Shown here: positions 47,953-62,778 of the stretch, one piece after another | How positions within the stretch are numbered: position 1 is the first letter of the stretch | Layout of the letters: the number at the start of each line of letters is the position of its first letter | The notes under the pieces: generated by a model | The model's input: the letters and a program-made list of their open reading frames with translations, nothing else | The model's database searches: none | Told to the model about the DNA's origin: nothing | Made by a program: the position numbers and the translations under genes | Assembly: GCA_963823665.1 (NCBI GenBank) | Contig: CAWGMQ010000005.1 | Span: forward strand, 256,001 to 320,000 | Length of the DNA stretch: 64,000 bases | Direction: 5' to 3' | Source of the DNA: an uncultured Planctomycetota bacterium | Lineage (GTDB): Bacteria > Planctomycetota > Planctomycetia > Isosphaerales > Isosphaeraceae

Positions 47953-49839
47953 CTACCGTCGCATCGACGCCCTACGCGAAGCCTCATCAAGCGTCGGCCG
48001 GATGCTGGTAACCTCGAGCAACACGAGTTCGTTGCGCTTCATGCTCGTCTCGCGTAGCAACGGCTTGGTGCGGGTGGCGAGCTCGGCGGCGAACAGCTCG
48101 TACTGGCGGTCGCGGATCAGCAAGTAACGCGCGAGCCCGTCGCGACGGTCCAGCCAAACCAGGAGCGCCTGCTTTTCGCGCGCCACCCGTTCGGCTTCGA
48201 GCCCGGCGAGCGTCTTGGAGTGACGCCGCTTGCGCAGAAAGCTGCGAGCCAGATCAAAGGCGGTGTTGTAGCGGGGATGAGTCTCCGGCACGGGTGCCAG
48301 ACGAAAACCCTTCGCGTAGAACCAGAGCCCTTCGTCGATCTCGTTGAAGAACATCAACGTGGGTGTGGATGAGGTGCCCGAAACGATCCCATCGAGCTTC
48401 TCCGCCACTGTTCGATGGCCACGTGCGGCGTTCTCCTGCGGAGCAATCTGTCCGTAAGCCACCAGGAATCCGACCACGCACGCGGCAGCAAGGGGCGCAA
48501 GTGCAATCGAGCTTCCTCCCCTCCGCCACGTTCGAGCACTTGCGGCGACCGCAATCGCAATGACCAGCCCGATGACCAGGCACCACGGCCAGCGGTCGGC
48601 TTCGACCTGATCGCGTGCCACGATCGGGGCCACAGCCGCCGCAACGAAGAACAATACCCACTGCGCTTGCAAGAGGCTTCGAGCCGCGATCGATTGGCCT
48701 CGCTTCGCCGGCCGACGCCCCGCCCTGCGCCAGCTCGACCCACGCGGCGCCGATCAGCAATGCCATGCCCGGCACGCACGGGACGTAATAGTTGGGCTTG
48801 GCGACCGACCAGCAGCAGAAAACAAATAGATTGCCCACACCCCACCACCACGGGAACCAAAGGTACGCGGATGGTCGCGCTGGCTGGGCTTGCCCCACAT
48901 TGCGCTCCGAAGTTCGTTCTCTCCTCGCGAGAAAGAAGGGCAGGATTGCTGCCACCGGAGCGATCATGGACCAGGGCAGGACCATGCCGGGCCATTGTGT
49001 TGCGAGCAACTGGTGGCGGCGGTGCTCGAGTATCTGCGAGAACCCGATTTTCTCCGACATCTCCAGGGCCCAGACCCGCGCGGCCGCCGAGTCCTCAAGC
49101 AGCACGGCAACCGGCCAGCTCATGGCCAGCGCGGCGAAGATCAGAACGCCCCGGACCGCTGAATAAGCGTCGCAGATCCCCATGCAAGACGGCGGCCTGA
49201 CGCAAGGTACGGGACCAGAGTCACGCCCGCGAGCAACAGGATGATCGGGCCCTTGGTCAAGAACCCCAGGCCGAGCGCACAGTAGAACAGCAGACACCAG
49301 CCGATCGCGCCGGCCGGTTCCGTATCTCGAGCAGCGCCAGTTGTGTGATCGCCCGTGGGTGACCTATCACTCGCTCGCTCCAGCCTGCGCCAGGCCGCAT
49401 AGAGCGCGAGCGTCGTGAAAAACGCGAGCGGACCGTCGTTGCTGGCCTGGCGCATCTCCCCGACAAAGAACGCCGACGAGCAGAGGACCAACCCGGACGC
49501 CAGGGCGAGCTCGCGGCCCCCCATGCGCAATCCCAACGCGTAAATGAGCGCAACGGTCAGGGCACCCGCGATCGCACCGGGAAGCCGCACGATCCGTTCG
49601 TCACGGCACCCGGTCAGCTTGATCAGAGCCGCGATCGACCAACGCGGCAGCGGCGGCTTCTCAAGTCGAGGTCGACCCTGAATCTCGGCAACCAGCCAGT
49701 GGTCGTGGTCGACCGTGTCGATCGCCTCGGCCGCTGCCCGCTGCTCGCGCTTACCCCAGAGCTCGACCGAGCCCAGACAGCCCAGGAAGGCCGCCAGTGC
49801 CAGCACCAAGAGCAGAGCCTCGGGCCACCATCGTCTCAT
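47953..49839 (-). CDS. ArnT/GT83-like integral membrane glycosyltransferase; frameshifts near 49170 and 48720
   Basis: LWGKREQR, PRLEKPPLPRW, VRLPGA, LGFLTKGP, KPNYYVPCVP. Confidence 0.85.
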
Positions 49840-49979
49840 ATGGGCCGGCAAGCTAACCGATCTGGCTGCTTTGGGCAATGGCGGAAGGCTCGGCGTTCGA
49901 CGCCGCGCTCACTGCGGGGTTTCCAGCTCACCAGCCCGAATCGCCAGCGAGGCGCCCCCTTCGCGCGAGGCCATGCTCA

Positions 49980-50534
49980 CTACGGGGTTTCCAGGGCGAA
50001 GTACATCGACAGCTCGGGCGGCGAGGTCGTGCGATTGTACATGAGACCGAGGAAGAGCCCGGGCGCGACCTGGCGAATCTCGTCGCGGTTATCGGCGTAG
50101 ATTCGTGACGTCTGGCTGTAGTCGAGCACCAGCGACGGCCGGCCGTCGAGCCAGCTCGGGCCCTCGTAAAGCTGGCCGCGAATGACCCGCATGCCGAAGA
50201 AGCGATTGACCGCCGTCGCCTCGTCGGGCTCAAACACCTTCCCCTGCCAGAGCAGCCGTGCGCCGCGCGAGACGATCCGGGCCCGACGCGTTCCGGGTGC
50301 CAGCAGCGCGGTGCCCCGCACCCGGCCGGGGGGAATGGCCACCGCCGTGCCCTGCCGGTAGACGTTTTCTATCTGCGCGGGTGTCATCGCCAGCAACTGG
50401 TCGAGCGTGACGGTTGCCTCGGCTGTTTGACCCTGTGCGTCGGGCGTGCAAGCCACAGCGCATCCGAGCACAAGCACGAAACCCATCATTCGAATTGTGT
50501 TCGCACCGACGAGCCGCCACGATCGAGTGGTCAC
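49980..50534 (-). CDS. Hypothetical exported protein
   Basis: Signal-like N-terminus; WQGKVF, SWLDGRPSLVLDY, RDEIRQVAPGLFLG look like conserved-domain motifs. Confidence 0.65.
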   Translation of the reverse strand: MTTRSWRLVGANTIRMMGFVLVLGCAVACTPDAQGQTAEATVTLDQLLAMTPAQIENVYRQGTAVAIPPGRVRGTALLAPGTRRARIVSRGARLLWQGKVFEPDEATAVNRFFGMRVIRGQLYEGPSWLDGRPSLVLDYSQTSRIYADNRDEIRQVAPGLFLGLMYNRTTSPPELSMYFALETP

Positions 50535-50707
50535 GATTGTTTCTCCTCATCTTGTTGCCGTTAGCGAATGTTGTCTACGACCCGACGCGCGCACGACGAG
50601 CCTTATCTTCATAAATCGGCCGGCAAGCTCGCCTCGCTTGAATCCCGATCATCAGCCTGGCCAGCGCCGTGGTTCGGACAGCCCGAATCCAGACCGATTC
50701 TCGAAGA

Positions 50708-51544
50708 TCAGCCAGACGCCATCGGTGGATTTCCAGGCCGCGGCCGACTCCACCATCGCCACATGAGCGCCAGGCCGAGCACCCACGCCACGAGCATCGC
50801 GTGGAAAAGCTCACGGCGCCTGACCTCTCCGTATGTGATCGTGCTGGTGCAGCCGCTCATCACAGTCAAGCCAGCCGCGACGACCAGCAGCCGAACGATC
50901 CGCGGATCGAAGAAGTAGCTTCGCCAGACGGCGGTTGCGACCCAGAAACTGCCGAAGAGCGTGCCAACAAATGTCCCGGCAACCACGATGCCATGCACCA
51001 GCGAGCGACTCCACTGGCCGGCGCGCTTCGCCCGCCGCAGCGCGGACCACGCCGGCCAGAGCCACGAGTAGGCCCAGATCGCGACGGCCGCGATCGATAA
51101 CACCCAGGTACCGACCCAGTAAGCCCAGGTATTTTTCCATGACTGCGGAATCTGGGGGACACGGCCAAGAAGACCCGGAAACAGCCGGTCTGCGTACATC
51201 AGACTGAAGAACACCCCCATGCACACAAAAGCGCCCCACCAGGGGCCGACGGCGACCCACACGGCCCTACGGCCCAGCAGTCGCCGCAGTCGGCCGCGCG
51301 GCGGTGGATCATCGTCCGGCACGTGCATCGTCGCGCCGGCCAGGAAGCCATAGCCCAGGAGCGGACCGAGCATGAGAATCCAGACGAGCCAGCCCCAGAC
51401 GCGCGGATCCGGCCCGGCTTTGCCGGAATCGCTAAAATCCAGATCACTGACCTGGAAGTACAGGTCCTCCAGCACAACCGGCACCACCGGAAAAATCAAC
51501 CAGGCGAGAACCGGCCAGAGCTCTCGACGAAATCCGTTCGGCAC
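50708..51544 (-). CDS. Hypothetical polytopic membrane protein
   Basis: Trp-rich, about seven hydrophobic segments; GGAG RBS upstream. Confidence 0.7.
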   Translation of the reverse strand: MPNGFRRELWPVLAWLIFPVVPVVLEDLYFQVSDLDFSDSGKAGPDPRVWGWLVWILMLGPLLGYGFLAGATMHVPDDDPPPRGRLRRLLGRRAVWVAVGPWWGAFVCMGVFFSLMYADRLFPGLLGRVPQIPQSWKNTWAYWVGTWVLSIAAVAIWAYSWLWPAWSALRRAKRAGQWSRSLVHGIVVAGTFVGTLFGSFWVATAVWRSYFFDPRIVRLLVVAAGLTVMSGCTSTITYGEVRRRELFHAMLVAWVLGLALMWRWWSRPRPGNPPMASG

Positions 51545-52063: not shown

Positions 52064-52277
52064 GTGAGGGTCTCGTCCCCGATTGACCCGCCTTCTTGCG
52101 ACGTGCTCGGTTCGACACAAGCAGGTGACAAGGCCGGTCGTGCCGGCCGGCCGAGCCCGAGAAAACAGACCGTCCGTCGAGCCGAGGACCCTCTCACTGG
52201 ATGGTCGCTCGGGTGAATCCGGCGTGATTTGCGGCGCTTCACGCGACGGCCGCCGATCTGAAACGCGAAAAGGGGCG

Positions 52278-53699
52278 ATGCTGATGAGGACTAAGAGCCA
52301 TATCTCGGTCCTCCCCAAGCCGAAGCGGGTTCCCCACCAGCAGTACCTGCCGGCTCACTCCGCCGCGCCGGACCCTGTGCCGCCGCCGGAGCGCGGTCTC
52401 TTTCCGGGTGAGCCCGAGAACTGCCGCCGCCGCCTGCGCCCGTTTCTGCGCAACCTCGCTTTTCTCGGCCTCCTTCTCCTCGTCTTCAAGGTTTTTCGCA
52501 TCGAGGAACGCGCCTACCAGGGGCGAGCCTTCCAGACTCTGGCAACGCTCGCCTTCCTGGCCTTCCCGGTCCACTATCTGAGCCCCTACCGCTTCAAGAA
52601 GCCGGTCTTCCTCGCCGTATCGATCGTCGGACTGTTCCTGGTCTTCGGAGCACTCCTGGCCGGGATCGTGCTCGCCTTTGCCGCGGTCTTGATCGGCGTT
52701 TGCTTTCTACCGATAAGGTGGTCTGCCCGCGCCGCGATCGTTGCCGCGATCGCCATGGCCTGCACGATCGCACGGCCTGGACTGGCAAACGCGGTTATTC
52801 CCGACGCCGTCTGGGCGATCGTCGCGTCGATCTTCATGTTCCGGATGATGATCTACCTTTATGAGCTCAAGCACGCCCGGAAGCCGGAAGGCCTGGTCGA
52901 TACGCTATCTTACTTTTTCCTGCTGCCCAATTACTGTTTCATGCTCTTTCCGGTCGTCGACTACCGCACGATGCAGCGCGGCTACTTCGCCCAGGATGTA
53001 CATGCCGTGCAGGAGCGCGGGCTCGAGATGATGTTCCGCGGCACGATTCACCTACTCTGCTACCGCTTGATCTACCACGACTTCTTGATTCCGGCATCGA
53101 AGGTGCACGACCCGGTCAGCCTGGCCACCTACCTCGTGTGCAACTACCTGCTCTACCTCCAGGTCTCAGGCCAGTTTCATATGGCCGTCGGCATGCTGCA
53201 TCTCTTCGGCTTTCAGCTTCCGCAGACCCATCATCACTACCTGCTGGCGAAGAGCTTCACCGACTACTGGCGACGGATCAACATCTACTGGAAAGATTTC
53301 ATGGTCCGCCTTTTCTTTAATCCCGTGGTCTTCCAGCTCAAGCGATGGCCCCAGCCTCTGGCTCTGGCAATTGCGACCTCGATCGTCTTTCTGGCCACCT
53401 GGCTCCTGCACGCATACCAGTCGTACTGGCTGCGCGGAAGTTGGGGGTTCTCGGTCACGGACGCGCTGTTCTGGGGAATCTTGGGCGCCCTGGTTCTTGT
53501 GAACGTCCAGCTCGACGCGCGCGGCAGCCGGTCCCGCCCCGCGAGCGACCGGGTGGTCCGTTCGAGCCGTCATCTCGCCATTTCCTCGTTGAAAGTCGCC
53601 GGAACATTCGCCACGGTCACGGTCTTGTGGTCCTTGTGGTGCAGCCCCAGTCTCTCGGCCTGGCTGGACATGTTTCATCGAGGGATCTATGGGTCATGA
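52278..53699 (+). CDS. MBOAT family membrane-bound O-acyltransferase (DltB/AlgI-like, divergent)
   Basis: SFTDYWRRINIYWKDF (variant of FWRRWHISL), TWLLHAY with putative catalytic His, YLQVSG; many TM helices. Confidence 0.85.
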   Translation: MLMRTKSHISVLPKPKRVPHQQYLPAHSAAPDPVPPPERGLFPGEPENCRRRLRPFLRNLAFLGLLLLVFKVFRIEERAYQGRAFQTLATLAFLAFPVHYLSPYRFKKPVFLAVSIVGLFLVFGALLAGIVLAFAAVLIGVCFLPIRWSARAAIVAAIAMACTIARPGLANAVIPDAVWAIVASIFMFRMMIYLYELKHARKPEGLVDTLSYFFLLPNYCFMLFPVVDYRTMQRGYFAQDVHAVQERGLEMMFRGTIHLLCYRLIYHDFLIPASKVHDPVSLATYLVCNYLLYLQVSGQFHMAVGMLHLFGFQLPQTHHHYLLAKSFTDYWRRINIYWKDFMVRLFFNPVVFQLKRWPQPLALAIATSIVFLATWLLHAYQSYWLRGSWGFSVTDALFWGILGALVLVNVQLDARGSRSRPASDRVVRSSRHLAISSLKVAGTFATVTVLWSLWCSPSLSAWLDMFHRGIYGS

Positions 53700-54934
53700 T
53701 TCGCGCATGACCAGGCAGATGCTGGTCGTCGTCCTCATTCTTCTGTCCGGCATCGTGCCCGAGCGGCTGGCCGGTCTCAAGGCGTCGTCGCTCCGCGACA
53801 GCTTGAAGAGCAACCTCTTCAACCGTGCTGACCTCGAGCGCATGGAGCACGGCTATTACGAAGCGCTGCTTGACCGCGGCCGTCGCCTGGACGACCTGGC
53901 CGAGCTGCCCACGATGCGAGTGCGGTGGCGCTCGGGCAGCACGTGGTCAATCCCCGTCGATCAGTCGCCGCTGGTGGTTCGAGTGGACGACCTGCGCGAG
54001 GTCGTGCTCAAGAAGAACGACGCCACGACGCGATTCGGCCTCGACTGGCGCACCAATTCACAAGGAATGCGCGACCGCGAGTATTCACTCGAGAAGCCGC
54101 CCGGAACCTTCCGCGTGGCCTTGGTCGGCGACTCCATCGGCGCCGGCTGGGGTGTCAACGCCGAGGATCGATTCGAATCGATCCTCGAGGAATTGTGGGA
54201 CAAACGTGCCGGCGCCATTGCAGGACGCAAAGTCGAGTTCATCAACTGCGCGGTGCCGGGGCATTCGCCGGGCCAGCGCTGGTATCACTTCGGCCTTCTC
54301 GGCTGGCCCATGGAACCCGACCTTGTGATCTATGAGGCAACCGCCGCGGACATCGGCTGGGACGAGCGCCGCCTACGATTCCTGCTGGCGCGCGGCATTG
54401 GCTGGGACTGCCCCATCTACCGTGCGGCTCTGAAAGCAGCAGGTGTGCAGCCGCTCGGCAGCCCCGATCATTACAAGCGAGCGCCTCCAGCCCAGGCACT
54501 GGGAGATCCTCGCGGGAGTTTATCGATACATGGCGGCCGATTGTCGCGCGCGGGGCGTGCCGGTCTTCTGGGTTCTCGTACCGCGGATCGGACGGCGCGG
54601 CGATGCAGAGGGCAAGCCTGCCCTGATCGAGACCGCTCGAAAAGCCGGGTTCGCCGGCGTGATCGACTTGACCGATGCCTTCGACGACCTCGACCCGGCT
54701 CGCCTCACGGTCGACCGCGACGACTTTCATCCCAACGCCCTGGGCCATGCGCGCATAGCCCAGAGGCTCGATCAGGCGCTTGAGCCGATCCCCCAGGTGG
54801 CAAGGATCTGGGAGACGGCAACCGCCTCGGAGAACGTTGGGCGGCTGGCTCGAAGCAAGGAGCCCGACACCGAGCGCCTCGATGAACAGGTCAAAGCAAC
54901 GAGCTTCGCTCCTGAAGGCGGAGGGCGGCCATGA
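53689..54934 (+). CDS. SGNH/GDSL-like protein 1; frameshift near 54490
   Basis: TNSQGMRDREY, ALVGDS, INCAVPG, DDFHPNALGH. Confidence 0.85.
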
Positions 54935-56304: not shown

Positions 56305-57906
56305 ATGGTAACCCGGCACCTGAGCCAGTTGCTCGAACAAGCGGCCGCCGCGCGGCCCGACCACACCGCCGTTCTGGACCAGAACGGCCGCTGTTTGAGC
56401 TACGCCGAGCTCGAGCGCGCCTCCGCCGCGCTCTCCATCCAGCTCACCCGCTGGGGCATCGACCGCGGAGATCGCGTCGGCCTCTGGCTTCCCAAGAGTC
56501 TTGAAGCCGTTACTGCGATTCACGGCATCCTCCGCTCGGGAGCAGCATACGTACCGGTCGATCCCACGGGGCCTGCCATCCGTGCCGCCGCGATCCTCGC
56601 CGCAAGCGACGCAAAGGCCGCCGTGATCTCGGCCACGCTGGTGCCGTCTTTTCGCGCGGCCTGGCCGAGCGCCAAGCCCTTCCCACGGTTGATCGTCGTC
56701 CAGGATGAGTGCGGCGCCGCGGCAGGTGCCATCGGAGCAGAAGACGCTCCCTATAGCGAAGTTGTCTCCGAGCGGCCATCGGCATCGAGCGCCGCCTCGC
56801 GCGACCGCGACGGCGACGACCTCGCCTACATCCTCTTCACGTCGGGATCGACGGGCGTGCCCAAGGGCGTGATGCTCTCACACGTGAATGCATTTACATT
56901 TATTGACTGGTGCTCGAGTGCGCTTGGGCCGTGGCTCTCGGGCGATCGCTTCGCGTCGCATGCCCCGTTCCAGTTCGACCTCTCGATATTCGACCTCTTC
57001 GTTGCTTGCCAGGCAGCCGCGACGCTCGTGCTCCTGGGTGAGTCACTGGGAAAAGATCCCGCCGCACTGGGCGATTTCATCGCCCAGGCGAAAATCAGCG
57101 TCTGGTACTCGGCTCCCACAATTCTTGCACTCCTGGCGCAGCAAGGGCGGCTCGATCGCCCGGGCATGCACTCGCCGCGGCTGGTGCTTTTTGCGGGCGA
57201 GGTCTTTCCGATTGCAGCGCTCAAGCAGCTTCGCGGGCTCTGGCCGGAAGCCTCGCTCTGGAACCTCTACGGCCCGACCGAGACCAACGTGTGCACCGCG
57301 TACCCCATACCTGCGACGATTCCGGCCGATCGCACGGTTCCCTTCCCGATCGGCAGGGTCTGCCCGCCACTTGAGGCGCGGGTGGTTGACGAGCAGGGCC
57401 GCGACGTGGCTCCGGGCTCGCTGGGCGAGCTCGTGATTGCCGGACCGGGCGTGATGCGCGGTTACTTCGGCCAGCCGGAGCTCACGTCGGCCGTCTTTTT
57501 CACATATGGCAAGACCCGCTGGTATCGCACCGGCGATCTTGTATGCGACGACGGGGGCGGGTGTTTCCTCTTCCACGGCCGGCGCGACCGGATGGTGAAG
57601 AAGCGAGGCTACCGGATCGAGCTCGGCGAGATCGAGTCGGCGCTCTACCGGCACGACGGAGTCGATCGCGCCGGAGTGGTTGCCCAGGCCGACGAGGTTG
57701 GCATCTCGATCGCCGCGTTTGTCGCGCTCAAGCCCGATCAGAAGAAGTCGATCATTGCCATGAAACGCCATTGCATGAGCTATCTGCCAGCTTACATGAT
57801 TCCGGATACGTTCACCTTTCTGGACGATCTGCCGAGAACCTCGACCGACAAGGTTGATTACCAGCGATTGAGATCCTTGGCTGCCCTGGAAGGACTACGC
57901 CCGTGA
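56305..57906 (+). CDS. Stand-alone amino-acid adenylation enzyme (NRPS A-domain; DltA/PltF-like)
   Basis: LAYILFTSGSTGVPKG, FDLS, FAGE, NLYGPTE, YRTGD, RGYRIELGEIE, LPRTSTDKVD. Confidence 0.93.
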   Translation: MVTRHLSQLLEQAAAARPDHTAVLDQNGRCLSYAELERASAALSIQLTRWGIDRGDRVGLWLPKSLEAVTAIHGILRSGAAYVPVDPTGPAIRAAAILAASDAKAAVISATLVPSFRAAWPSAKPFPRLIVVQDECGAAAGAIGAEDAPYSEVVSERPSASSAASRDRDGDDLAYILFTSGSTGVPKGVMLSHVNAFTFIDWCSSALGPWLSGDRFASHAPFQFDLSIFDLFVACQAAATLVLLGESLGKDPAALGDFIAQAKISVWYSAPTILALLAQQGRLDRPGMHSPRLVLFAGEVFPIAALKQLRGLWPEASLWNLYGPTETNVCTAYPIPATIPADRTVPFPIGRVCPPLEARVVDEQGRDVAPGSLGELVIAGPGVMRGYFGQPELTSAVFFTYGKTRWYRTGDLVCDDGGGCFLFHGRRDRMVKKRGYRIELGEIESALYRHDGVDRAGVVAQADEVGISIAAFVALKPDQKKSIIAMKRHCMSYLPAYMIPDTFTFLDDLPRTSTDKVDYQRLRSLAALEGLRP

Positions 57907-58912
57907 GGCGATTCGACACGCCGCAAAAACGACGACTCTCGCTGAGCACGACGCGGATGCGCCACGTGTTCTCGTGGAAGTTCGTTTTTTACGACCTGCT
58001 CCTGCCCGCGCTGCGAATGCTGGGCGCGACACGCGGCGACGCGATCCTCGGTTTGCTGGGACGGCTGGTCATGGCCGTTCGGCCACGGCGCCGTAGGGAG
58101 TCTGCGCCTCGCTCAAGCGAGTGAAGCGTGCGCTCGACGCCGAGTGGTCGATCGAGACGACCTGGCCGGCGCTGGCAGCCAACACCGCCAGGTTCCTGGC
58201 CCGCGACTATCCGCTCGATCGGCAGACCGACGAAGCTGTCTTGCGCCGATTTGACGTGTGCGGCTACGAGCGGTTAAGCGCGACGCTTGCTGACGGACGA
58301 GGCGCGATCCTGGTCGGCAGCCATCTTGGAGCCCACATCGCCGGCGTGCACTGGCTGTTTCGCCGCGGTGTTGCCGTGAGGCTCCTGGTTCAACGTCCCA
58401 GGCACGTTTCGGGCGAGCTGAATCGGCGGTTCGACGCCGGCGGGCGACACCCCCAAGCCGAGATGTTCCTGCGCCGCGATCTGTCCCGGGCGGTGGCCGT
58501 CGAGCGCGTCTTCCGGGCCCGGGCCGCGCTGCGCGATGGCATGGCGATCTACCTGAACGGCGACATCCCCTGGAACGGCCCCAATACCTGCGCCGGCAGG
58601 CTGCTGGGCCGTCCTCAACGCTTTCTCGCCATCTGGACCGAGCTGGCCGTTTTAACAAGTGCGCCGGTTTTCCTCGTGTTCTGCACGCATTTGCCCGGTG
58701 GCCGGTTCGCGCTCGAGCTCGAAGCCATCGGCCACTTACACGCCGGCGAGGAGGAATCGGCCGTCGCCGACTACCTGAAGCAACTCGAAGCGCGCATCGA
58801 GGCCTCACCCGTCGACGCGGTCGCCCACCTGGGCTGGCCATGTTACGTCTCGCCCCCGGCACCCGGCCACCGGCCGTCGAGGCGCAGGTCGTCCATAGCG
58901 AGCCGGCGCTGA
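57903..58912 (+). CDS. LpxL/HtrB-like (lipid A/lysophospholipid) acyltransferase; frameshift near 58100
   Basis: GYERL...GRGAILVGSHLG, ALRDG.AIYLNGD, LLGRP, LEARIEASP. Confidence 0.75.
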
Positions 58913-59068: not shown

Positions 59069-59778
59069 GTGTCCGACAATTTGGGCTCTTACGCCGGGAA
59101 CTTTTTTTTCACACGTCCAAGGCGTCGCGAATTGACGGCCGCTGATGACCTTCTGTACTCCGATGGATTTGCTTTCCTGCTAGCCTGTTGCTTGGATCGC
59201 GGGATGCAATCAGAAATCATCGGGAGGATTCCTTATTACCTGAAAAGGGAGCTCGGTCACCTTGACCCTGTGCGGATCGCCGAGATGTCATTAGAGGTGA
59301 TTCGAAACGCTCTGGAACGATTGCCGCAGAAACCGAGATACATGCATGAGGCTCCGAACACGGTTTCAGAACTGGCGGAGATCATTGCACGAGATTTCGG
59401 GGGCAGGCCAGAATCGCTCTGGGAAGGGCGCTCGCCCCGAGACATCATTCGTACGCTCCGGAGAATACGAGGCGTGGACACGATCGCGAACATGACGGTG
59501 AACCTATTACATCGCTATCTCGACGTGGAGTTTCGCCTCGAGGACCTATGCCACATCGACGTCAAGCCTGACGTGCATGTCGAACGCGTCTTCTATCGAA
59601 CGGGCCTGATGGATCGTGCCGGCCGATCAGTTGAGGCCGCGCGCAACTGAATCAATCGTATCCGGCGGCTCTTGATCTCGGGAGTTGGGAAATCGGGCGT
59701 CGCTGGTGCGCTGCGATCAACCCAGATCATGAGCGGTGCCCGTTGTCTGCAATCTGTCCTCGCAAGAACACAAGTTGA
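59069..59778 (+). pseudogene. HhH-GPD/endonuclease III-related protein, probably 5'-truncated, frameshift near 59640
   Basis: LRRIRGV..IANM (HhH), KPDVHVERVFYRTGL; the shifted frame gives LDLGSWEIGRRWCAAINPDHERCPLSAIC (Fe-S loop). Confidence 0.7.
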
Positions 59779-60879: not shown

Positions 60880-62778
60880 CTACGGCTCTCCGTTCATCCT
60901 CTCCGGAATTCGGTGCGATGTCGATAGTGGCGGGGGCAAGGGCCAACCGGGTATGCCGGCATCGGCCGGGGCTCGCCCTGCTCGGATCGCCGCGGCGGCT
61001 CGCCGATATTCCGAAGCACGCTCGTTGCGGAACTTGGGATCGTAACGGACATAAGCGGCGGCGCGGAAGAACCCGGCGTCTCGCGACGCAATCTGCGCCC
61101 ACCGCTTCGCGTCGATGCCGAAATGGCGAGCACACATCTCGGCGGTGACCACCGGTACCGGCGTTCCCGCCGGCCACGAAAAGGCGCGGCGCCCGGCGAG
61201 TTGATTCATCAGGTCCTCGGCCAGCGCGGCGTAGCCCTGAAGATTGGGATGCTGGGCATCGTGGAAGAACTGGCCGCCAACGATCCCGTGCCGGCTTCTC
61301 GACTCGAGCACTTTCGGCCCGTCGACCAGGACCACCGAAGGGTGCCTCGCCGCGACGTTACGATACGCCTGCCGAAGCGGCTCCGGACAACGCAGAGGCA
61401 TTCCATCATGCTCTCGCGCTTTGATGTAGTGCTCCCTGGCTTCGTCCCAGAGCCCGGTTTGCTCGAGGAGCCTGGCGAGACGGTAGTGTGTCTCGGCGAA
61501 CTCGGGATGGCGGTTCACCAGCTCGCGGTAGATCCGCCGCGCTGCGGCGGGTTCTTTCTCTTCAACCGCTCGGGCGTGGGCGACTTCTCTGGCAAAAGCG
61601 TCGCGCTCGGCCCGAGGCGTCTCCGGCGCCAGTACCGAGCGGCTCGGATCGAAGCCGGCATCATTGCCGGGCGGGATGACGTAAATCGGCAGGGTCCCGA
61701 TCGACTCGCAGTAAACGGCGATCGATTCCAGCCGGCGCTCGAAGTCGTCGGTGATCGCCTGGAATTCGGCGGCGGTGCAGACAGGGCGATCGACCAGCTC
61801 CCGCGTGACAACGCGCGGCGGCAGCGAGTCGAGCCGTTGCCGCTCGCGGGTCTCGCCAAGCAATTGCAAGAGTGGCGAGAACTCGAGAATGGAAGCGATT
61901 CCCGACAGGCGGGCGACGCGCAGCGGCACCGGGTCGTCGTCGAGATAGTGCGCGACGTCTCGCATCCAGGCGTAGCGCCCCTGGAATTCGTTGTGCCCGA
62001 CGTACACCATCAGGGCGTCCGGACGATAGTTCAGCCCGTCGAGTTTCTGGTGCATCATCGTGAGGGTCGCCCCGCCCTCGGCCCACATATCGACTTCAAT
62101 CGCGCTGCCCGGAAAGACTTTCTCCATGCGCCATGCAATGATCTGAGCGACCGAGAGCCAGGGGTGGTAAGGCTCGCCGCGGGCGCTCGACTCGCCGATC
62201 ACGAGCATTCGCAACGGCCGAGCCGCGCCGTTCGAGTTCGCTTCTCGGCCCTGGAATCGGCTCGGTAGCGCGGGAGTTGTTCCCTCGGAACCGAGCCGAT
62301 CACCCTCACCGGCTGGTTCAGGCAGCACGGCGACCGCCGGCAGATCGGGGCTCCGGTTCAGCCGCGCCCGCCAGCCAGCGGCGCCGGCCTCGAAAAGGCC
62401 GAGTGCAAGCAATGTCGAGCAGCAAAGCAAAAGCAGCCTAGCCTGCAAGAAGCTCTTCCGCCCATCCGGACGCGCAGACCTCTGCCTCGCAGATCGAGTT
62501 CGCGCTCTCAGAGCGACCAGCACGAGCGCACCCAGGAACGCCACGATCAGCGTGAGAGGATAAGCGATCAAAAGCGCGTCAACGAAAAAGATAGCCGCCT
62601 GTCTGCGCAGCAGTGCCGTCTCGCGACCGGAGACAACCTGAATCCAGCCCGGCACGAGCTGGAACGCAGCATAACCAGCCACGCCAAGCGCGATGAAAAG
62701 GAGTAAGCGAATCGCACGACGCAGAGTGAAACGACGAGCGGAACTGGGCGAATTGGAGATTTCTGGGTCCGACATCAC
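60880..62778 (-). CDS. Membrane-anchored SGNH-like protein with TPR insertion
   Basis: Three N-terminal TM; VIGESSARG, YVGHNEF, TPR AETHYRLARLL, HDAQHPNLQGY. Confidence 0.8.
   Translation of the reverse strand: MMSDPEISNSPSSARRFTLRRAIRLLLFIALGVAGYAAFQLVPGWIQVVSGRETALLRRQAAIFFVDALLIAYPLTLIVAFLGALVLVALRARTRSARQRSARPDGRKSFLQARLLLLCCSTLLALGLFEAGAAGWRARLNRSPDLPAVAVLPEPAGEGDRLGSEGTTPALPSRFQGREANSNGAARPLRMLVIGESSARGEPYHPWLSVAQIIAWRMEKVFPGSAIEVDMWAEGGATLTMMHQKLDGLNYRPDALMVYVGHNEFQGRYAWMRDVAHYLDDDPVPLRVARLSGIASILEFSPLLQLLGETRERQRLDSLPPRVVTRELVDRPVCTAAEFQAITDDFERRLESIAVYCESIGTLPIYVIPPGNDAGFDPSRSVLAPETPRAERDAFAREVAHARAVEEKEPAAARRIYRELVNRHPEFAETHYRLARLLEQTGLWDEAREHYIKAREHDGMPLRCPEPLRQAYRNVAARHPSVVLVDGPKVLESRSRHGIVGGQFFHDAQHPNLQGYAALAEDLMNQLAGRRAFSWPAGTPVPVVTAEMCARHFGIDAKRWAQIASRDAGFFRAAAYVRYDPKFRNERASEYRRAAAAIRAGRAPADAGIPGWPLPPPLSTSHRIPERMNGEP

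Follow-up and report, generated by a model that had tools for sequence, protein, structure and literature searches.

The window analyzed here is a 64,000-nucleotide stretch of contig CAWGMQ010000005.1 (assembly GCA_963823665.1) from an uncultured soil bacterium of the planctomycete family Isosphaeraceae, and it contains an operon of five co-oriented, abutting genes for an MBOAT-type membrane acyltransferase, two SGNH proteins, a stand-alone adenylation enzyme (A domain) and a LABLAT acyltransferase. We hypothesize, with modest confidence, that this operon belongs to a genetically split, Dlt-like envelope acylation system in which proline would be converted to a pyrrole-2-carbonyl group and attached to an envelope glycan or glycolipid. 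The transferred group would more likely be oxidized (pyrrole-2-carbonyl, +93 Da, or possibly pyrroline, +95 Da) than an intact prolyl group (+97 Da), because a dehydrogenase and a carrier protein exist elsewhere in the genome, are retained across the family as widely as the A domain, and share one operon with homologous A-domain and MBOAT-SGNH genes in distant bacteria.

The adenylation enzyme and its proline code

The adenylation gene is an intact open reading frame (ORF) of 533 amino acids that matched AMP-binding and AMP-binding_C in profile searches and scored above the cut-off of TIGR01733 (352.9 against 317.4) and far under those of two DltA models (281.7 against 559.85 and 278.6 against 476). 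It contains the motifs FDLSIF, VWYSAPT, LFAGE and NLYGPTETNVC. Anchoring on these motifs and checking the positions on alignments to PltF, PigI, LgrA and DltA gave the ten code residues D225, L226, F229, Y268, L295, A297, L321, V329, C330 and K516 (DLFYLALVCK), so that the motifs and code proposed in an earlier interpretation made from the letters of this DNA (the sequence-only reading) are borne out. The code of PltF, as read from the alignment, is DLLYLALVC and differs solely at the third position, an identity of nine in ten when the invariant lysine outside the aligned stretch is counted, and that of PigI is DLFYIAWVC. The residues LFYLALVC also match at all eight positions the consensus L(L/F)YLALVC for L-proline A domains that stand alone, given in the available text of PMC3874040, and the kinship to such enzymes that the sequence-only reading had proposed is upheld by both comparisons.

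The whole protein and its pocket rank the known structures in favor of PltF, which was the top single-domain PDB match (329 bits) ahead of PigI (240) and DltA (at most 222); the pocket region scored 186, 130 and 100 bits against the same three. PDB entry 4oxi, presumably AlmE, reached 150 bits over the whole protein. Among the 120 best homologs the same code recurs in 116 and is changed at one position in the remaining four, and a quick tree built without PltF, RedM or AlmE themselves placed the A domains of the family (support 99) beside a clade from the distant cassettes described below (99) and apart from DltA. We predict with high confidence that the window enzyme activates proline. A D-alanine-activating DltA identity, which the sequence-only reading had also dismissed, is rejected: the protein has FAGE where Bacillus subtilis DltA (code DLMTMCTVA, read from the alignment) has FCGE, its scores lie under the DltA cut-offs, it falls outside the DltA clade, and the genome encodes a true dltABCD elsewhere. 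The latter is a complete Firmicutes-like dltD-dltA-dltB-dltC operon at C5:1204200-1208900 (L077, 6226-10875), with DltB, DltC and DltD above their curated cut-offs and DltA frameshifted. In Obscuribacterales and Paraburkholderia (L005, L008 and L009), stand-alone A domains have the code DLFYLAIIVK, related to that of the window enzyme yet distinct.

Carrier and dehydrogenase encoded apart from the operon

Homolog searches of the window and profile scans of 48 of its ORFs found no dehydrogenase, carrier or polyketide synthase (PKS), as the sequence-only reading had said of dehydrogenase and PKS in the neighborhood, but this absence does not extend to the rest of the genome. Our genome-wide statements rest on homology searches of the contigs of the window's own genome (G000), with carrier and dehydrogenase queries taken from loci where both adjoin an A domain (L058, L059 and L062, comprising out-of-family loci and a second copy). 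Both partners were recovered on contig C10, 1.9 Mb apart from each other, the A domain being on C5. The PltL-like carrier (C10:1963453-1963704, with a GILDS motif) was the one match (E 3.5e-19); a Pfam PP-binding search missed it, and it was found only with a homolog as query. Its top structures were 2my5, Bmp1 and PltL, ahead of DltC. The prolyl-carrier-type dehydrogenase (C10:36856-37996) is present in a single copy that is frameshifted in this assembly. An intact ortholog scored 374 bits against AnaB, 304 against Bmp3 and 300 against PigA, with generic acyl-CoA dehydrogenases at 247 or less, and its best NCBIfam models were PigA (430) and RedW (384), the next reaching 260. It retains the WERG and (Y/F)SGT motifs, and in a quick tree the family dehydrogenases (support 100) fell among dehydrogenases linked to carriers or A domains (99), apart from generic acyl-CoA dehydrogenases. 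As the next-best A-domain match in the genome reached 207 bits, there is one close homolog of each part.

The distribution of these genes was surveyed in 400 genomes of the class, 98 from the same family (Isosphaeraceae, judged from named close relatives) and 302 others. Of the 98 family genomes 93 have the A domain, all but one of them in a single copy, against 4 of the 302 others; the carrier occurs in 95 and 16 (3 strong and 13 weak matches, the strong ones in the same three genomes that gave strong A-domain matches); the dehydrogenase in 90 and 2; and the MBOAT gene in 92 and 7. A domain, carrier and dehydrogenase occur together in 83 of the 98 family genomes, and of the 88 with both carrier and dehydrogenase, 38 have the two on one contig and 25 within 15 kb. 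All 15 in-family loci show the order MBOAT, SGNH, A domain, LABLAT (two SGNH genes in 13, one in 2), with co-orientation from MBOAT to A domain kept throughout and the carrier present in none. The operon is a family core operon and not a sporadic metabolite cluster.

Physical linkage of all the parts was seen outside the family in a metagenome scan, in which the best 80 of 483 MBOAT relatives comprised 32 close loci and 48 distant ones (40 to 48% identity, many short and some redundant). Within these best 80, the close loci had an A domain in 21, LABLAT in 15, and carrier or dehydrogenase in none. Of the 48 distant loci among them, 38 had the carrier, 21 an A domain (in every case with the PltF code) and 17 the dehydrogenase; 14 combined the three, 2 had a halogenase-like gene, and none had LABLAT. 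The usual distant order is a fused MBOAT-SGNH gene, carrier, A domain and dehydrogenase, and 3 of the 7 distant loci with an A domain but no scored dehydrogenase end at or just after the A domain. On a Microvirga plasmid, the dehydrogenase, A domain, carrier and MBOAT-SGNH genes lie inside an exopolysaccharide cluster, and L058 and L062 have these genes as well. A scan for glycan genes, which took in 82 of the 114 ORFs picked at 12 distant loci, detected them at 8 (glycosyltransferases, Wzy, Wzm/Wzt, sulfotransferases and a priming transferase), with one locus ambiguous and three without. Within the family, carrier paralogs of the family type adjoin an SGNH gene in G312, G292, G200 and G360, with a priming sugar transferase close by in three of these, and another adjoins a family-type MBOAT gene in G340. 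In L059 (G093), genes for electron transfer flavoprotein subunits and an Fe-S oxidoreductase lie between carrier, A domain and dehydrogenase and may represent a dedicated electron sink.

The carrier has a curated label that would point to a different function. NCBIfam names it an ornithine lipid biosynthesis acyl carrier protein (NF052616, 142 against a cut-off of 130), and olsH is a near neighbor at 12 of the 17 loci examined for the carrier, both facts agreeing with an explanation in which the carrier beside olsI-olsG-olsH is functional there and the group ends up on ornithine lipid or on a small metabolite that is secreted. We regard such an acceptor as very unlikely. The carrier is on the opposite strand to, and convergent with, olsH in 12 of 12 loci; the paper on the OlsH/OlsI pathway (PMC12493201) starts its reconstitution from ATP and free fatty acid, and its main text, as far as available, mentions no acyl carrier, carrier gene, proline or MBOAT; and the available text of a 2026 review likewise mentions neither proline nor pyrrole. 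The ornithine-lipid label probably reflects adjacency alone, and the proposed system suggests that it is wrong. Other neighbors of the carrier are a Wza-like Poly_export gene, which adjoins it in all 17 loci, and a co-oriented alkaline-phosphatase-superfamily gene (PF01663) upstream in 9 of the 17 (L092, L094-L096, L099, L104, L108, L109 and L111).

Membrane transferases and the proposed pathway

Table 1. Features of the window that form the operon or lie near it.
Feature	Position	Strand	Basis
Divergent MBOAT-fold membrane acyltransferase (predicted)	52278..53699	+	AlphaFold2 model, Foldseek, VIA, alignment
SGNH protein 1 (GDS...DxxHPN), split by a one-base indel near 54480	53689..54934	+	Weak Lipase_GDSL_2 matches, both pieces
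SGNH protein 2, N-terminal hydrophobic segment	54931..56286	+	Invariant Y62-Y63, S151, D363, H365
PltF-like adenylation enzyme, stand-alone and of L-proline type (predicted), with code DLFYLALVCK	56305..57906	+	Profiles, structure matches, code, tree
LABLAT/LPLAT-fold acyltransferase (PF03279), split by a one-base indel near 58100	57903..58912	+	PF03279, 35.9 bits, above cut-off
ArnT/PMT_2-like membrane glycosyltransferase, frameshifted, divergent; system membership uncertain	47953..49878	-	PMT_2 match
Third SGNH-like/TPR protein, convergent; system membership uncertain	60880..62778	-	Profile match

The first gene of the operon (Table 1) is assigned an ATG start as indicated by its homologs, the longest ORF beginning at a TTG at 52083. 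None of the 14 members of our MBOAT alignment matched the Pfam MBOAT profile at E up to 1. An AlphaFold2 model of the protein (predicted local distance difference test [pLDDT] 80.9) retrieved DltB first in Foldseek (E 5e-7) and aligned with it in VIA over 363 residues (Z 23.2, root mean square deviation 4.8); judged by this model the membrane protein is of the MBOAT fold, and the locus adds an MBOAT family that Pfam misses. N335 and H378 are invariant in the 14 aligned sequences, and H378 is, by motif, a candidate counterpart of the catalytic DltB histidine. No FxYxxF acyl-shuttle motif occurs at the C terminus of the 14 aligned proteins, and no DltX-like microprotein was seen, no systematic search for a separate microprotein having been made.

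Of the two SGNH proteins, the second is present in all 15 family loci and the first is missing from 2. The putative catalytic residues of SGNH protein 2 (Ser plus DxxH) are invariant in the alignment, as is a Tyr-Tyr pair near the N terminus in 14 of 14 sequences, fused forms included. The predicted complex of the MBOAT protein with SGNH protein 2 was a weak pass (0.60 against 0.00 for the best control), with contact agreement of at least 57% and partner pLDDT of at least 77. In calibration, 116 of the 157 solved pairs and 2 of the 215 mismatched ones attained the mark, but among these only 18 solved pairs and both mismatches did so at 0.60 or less; the score may also reflect resemblance to known MBOAT-SGNH pairs.

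The LABLAT protein is intact at 320 amino acids in the relative locus L002, whose SGNH protein 1 is also unbroken, and the one-base differences in both genes of the window are seen against L001. The splits, like that of the dehydrogenase, are probably sequence errors, since further genes of this assembly are split too. The L002 LABLAT model matches Mycobacterium smegmatis PatA (E 6e-12) and LpxM (E 1e-10), and a PDB sequence search with the LABLAT protein gave no match. The family motif of LABLAT proteins is HxxxxD/E, and it is absent from the operon protein: His124 is invariant with no acid at +5, and a distant Asp204 is invariant. A housekeeping role in lipid A acylation is unlikely for this gene because a far stronger PF03279 match exists at C8:500830; the genome also encodes LpxB and two phosphopantetheinyl transferases. 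Most of the family genomes searched have at least two LABLAT matches, and in G000 a LABLAT paralog (34% to that of the operon) lies with a FabF-like ketosynthase and a dedicated acyl carrier protein (ACP) at C6:180000-182900 (L042/L078), a set that recalls the rhizobial AcpXL/LpxXL set.

We propose the following pathway. The window A domain would adenylate L-proline, which the code and homology strongly predict, and would load it onto the stand-alone PltL-like carrier at C10:1963453. The flavin dehydrogenase at C10:36856 would then oxidize the prolyl carrier to a pyrrole-2-carbonyl carrier in the manner of Bmp3, PigA and PltE, as its family membership suggests. The MBOAT protein may move the group across the membrane, speculatively by way of the SGNH Tyr-Tyr pair in place of DltX or a C-terminal motif, and the SGNH Ser/Asp/His center would esterify a periplasmic or surface glycan. 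Alternatively or in addition, LABLAT, acting at the cytoplasmic face, may hand the carrier-bound group directly to lipid A or a glycolipid as lipid-linked acceptor, much as AlmG transfers glycine. The product would be an unhalogenated pyrrole-2-carbonyl decoration (+93.02 Da) common to the family, and we lean, by a little, toward expecting it on the envelope of the soil source bacterium and of nearly all family genomes examined.

Several observations weigh against this proposal. The carrier and dehydrogenase lie outside the operon in 15 of 15 family loci and 32 of 32 close metagenome loci, and in one clade of distant loci (L152, L167, L182 and L192) A domain, carrier and MBOAT genes occur without a dehydrogenase in the following 2 to 9 kb. 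The dehydrogenase scores under the curated PigA and RedW cut-offs (500 and 650), and its gene and those for SGNH protein 1 and LABLAT are all frameshifted in this assembly. No polysaccharide synthesis genes adjoin the family operon, and distant loci L170, L185 and L186 are the three without glycan genes. At three other planctomycete loci (L197, L198 and L200), fused MBOAT-SGNH homologs are found close to fatty acyl-AMP ligases, which suggests that fatty acyl groups are exported by the same family. An MBOAT of this type is hence no sign in itself of a proline-derived group, and the membrane relay is not specific to proline. AnaB, the best structural match of the dehydrogenase, presumably stops at pyrroline. 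Finally, the co-occurrence counts come from kin and are hence not independent, so that the weight of the argument rests on the one-of-each count in the genome and on physical linkage elsewhere.

The displaced dehydrogenase and the four distant loci lacking an adjacent one would be accounted for if an unoxidized prolyl group were transferred to an envelope polymer or lipid, lending positive charge as in Dlt or Alm, with the dehydrogenase serving another role or a side branch. The position of LABLAT after the A domain also fits, since it resembles AlmEFG, which transfers unmodified glycine. We nevertheless consider plain prolylation fairly unlikely, given that a single-copy dehydrogenase of the prolyl-carrier type is kept in 90 of the 98 family genomes, that the genome has no second PltF-type A domain to supply it, and that the gene is near the carrier in 25 of 88 genomes and inside the operon in 14 distant loci. 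Prolylation of an envelope component was the conclusion of the sequence-only reading; its proline specificity and envelope target are supported, but the prolyl group is unsafe because a prolyl-carrier-type dehydrogenase and a PltL-like carrier exist elsewhere in the genome, which favors an oxidized group.

How far the oxidation proceeds is a separate matter, and the AnaB match (374 bits against 304 and 300) could indicate that it ends at pyrroline, or the ring could be altered further before transfer. The literature searched, consisting largely of open-access main texts and of the best matches to broad queries, contained nothing on the catalytic residue or product of AnaB. We give these variants little probability: flavin halogenase-like genes accompany the module in L058, L062 and L180, consistent with an aromatic pyrrole, and no additional tailoring gene is conserved in the family. 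A halopyrrole product in Isosphaeraceae is rejected, as only one of 100 family genomes has the L058-type halogenase and none was found in G000.

It is also conceivable, though quite unlikely, that the operon combines two uncoupled activities, LABLAT alone using the proline-derived group (with lipid A or some other lipid as acceptor) and the MBOAT and SGNH proteins moving another substrate such as fatty acyl-ACP. The fatty acyl-AMP ligase contexts agree with this, the more so as the fused loci L198 and L200 have an ACP-like gene beside the ligase, and L061 has A-domain, carrier, halogenase-like and LABLAT genes without MBOAT. An A domain is likewise lacking within some 8 kb of a second MBOAT-SGNH pair in G000 (C5:1484200-1486800, L196 8201-10800; 58% over its length), and at least 13 family genomes carry comparable additional copies. 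On the other side, the A domain, carrier and dehydrogenase set travels with MBOAT-SGNH in the distant loci, where LABLAT is found in 0 of 48, and none of the 15 family loci breaks the co-orientation from MBOAT to A domain.

An extended form of the pyrrole-2-carbonyl proposal can be offered only tentatively, and we doubt that all of its parts will hold: pyrrole-2-carboxylate would be esterified constitutively to the envelope throughout the family, with a starter module of the antibiotic type serving as housekeeping machinery, MBOAT/SGNH acting outside and LABLAT inside, and a new kind of acyl shuttle with its relay tyrosines on SGNH. This MBOAT family would then be an exporter of general use that depends on a carrier and takes pyrrole, halopyrrole or fatty acyl groups according to lineage.

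Related systems and neighboring genes

In outline, the proposed system would work like Dlt fed by a PltF/PltL/PltE module, and is not Dlt itself. With the teichoic acid D-alanylation system (DltA, DltC, DltB, DltX and DltD; mechanism as in the available text of PMC12148441) it shares a stand-alone A domain, a carrier, a DltB-closest MBOAT fold and the SGNH Ser/Asp/His residues, and it differs in its proline rather than D-alanine code, its dehydrogenase partner, its two SGNH genes and LABLAT, the missing C-terminal FxYxxF motif and the DltX that was not seen, as well as in coexisting with a separate dltABCD. The top structure matches of A domain, carrier and dehydrogenase, and the consensus code, all point to the pyrrole starter modules (PltF/PltL/PltE, and also PigI/G/A, RedM/O/W, Bmp4/1/3 and AnaC/D/B), whose prolyl-carrier dehydrogenase step is described in PMC8857579. 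Unlike those modules, the genes studied here have no PKS or nonribosomal peptide synthetase partner in the loci examined, are tied to membrane acyltransferases, and form part of a family core spread over two or three loci rather than a sporadic cluster.

AlgI/AlgJ/AlgX and PatA/PatB are alike in pairing MBOAT with one or two SGNH proteins on extracytoplasmic glycans, but they use acyl-CoA without a carrier and have a C-terminal tyrosine motif, whereas here there is a carrier and no such motif. Vibrio cholerae AlmEFG, the lipid A glycylation system, also combines an A domain, a carrier and a LABLAT-family transferase; the differences are the proline code (4oxi at 150 bits against 329 for PltF) and the added MBOAT/SGNH and dehydrogenase. 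In clorobiocin and coumermycin, pyrrole-2-carbonyl is transferred to noviose, so that a carrier-bound pyrrole acid esterifies a sugar as we propose here, but through soluble transferases and onto a small antibiotic rather than by a membrane relay to the envelope. As for other proline-like groups on surface glycans, 5-oxoproline derivatives are known O-antigen N-acyl groups and represent a different chemistry (available text of PMC10609480).

The literature searched as described above yielded no MBOAT system that transfers a prolyl or pyrrole-carbonyl group, and the available text of PMC12148441 (2025) describes MBOAT/SGNH pathways other than Dlt as lacking a carrier protein, and the C-terminal FxYxxF acyl-shuttle motif as belonging to other MBOAT-SGNH systems. 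If correct, our proposal would define a second carrier-dependent MBOAT/SGNH type, one that places a natural-product building block on the cell surface. The contribution of the present locus is a split, family-wide version with LABLAT, two SGNH genes, a likely mislabeled carrier and cultured relatives, among them Singulisphaera sp. PoT and Aquisphaera giovannonii. Nearly all sampled genomes of this family, which has cultured members, encode the system, and the available text of PMC12493201 reports a first Singulisphaera acidiphila knockout, so the prediction is directly testable.

Other genes in the window may or may not belong to the system. The ArnT-like transferase is a frequent neighbor, close to the operon in 7 of the 15 family loci, and the third SGNH-like/TPR gene is close to it in 3. 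A scan of the window for promoters and terminators gave nothing beyond chance. An HhH-GPD-like gene (59069-59650, forward strand; weak TIGR03252 match) directly follows the operon and is absent from that position in L001-L003. Two hypothetical genes at 49980-51544 on the reverse strand, without Pfam or NCBIfam matches, are kept beside the operon in several relatives.

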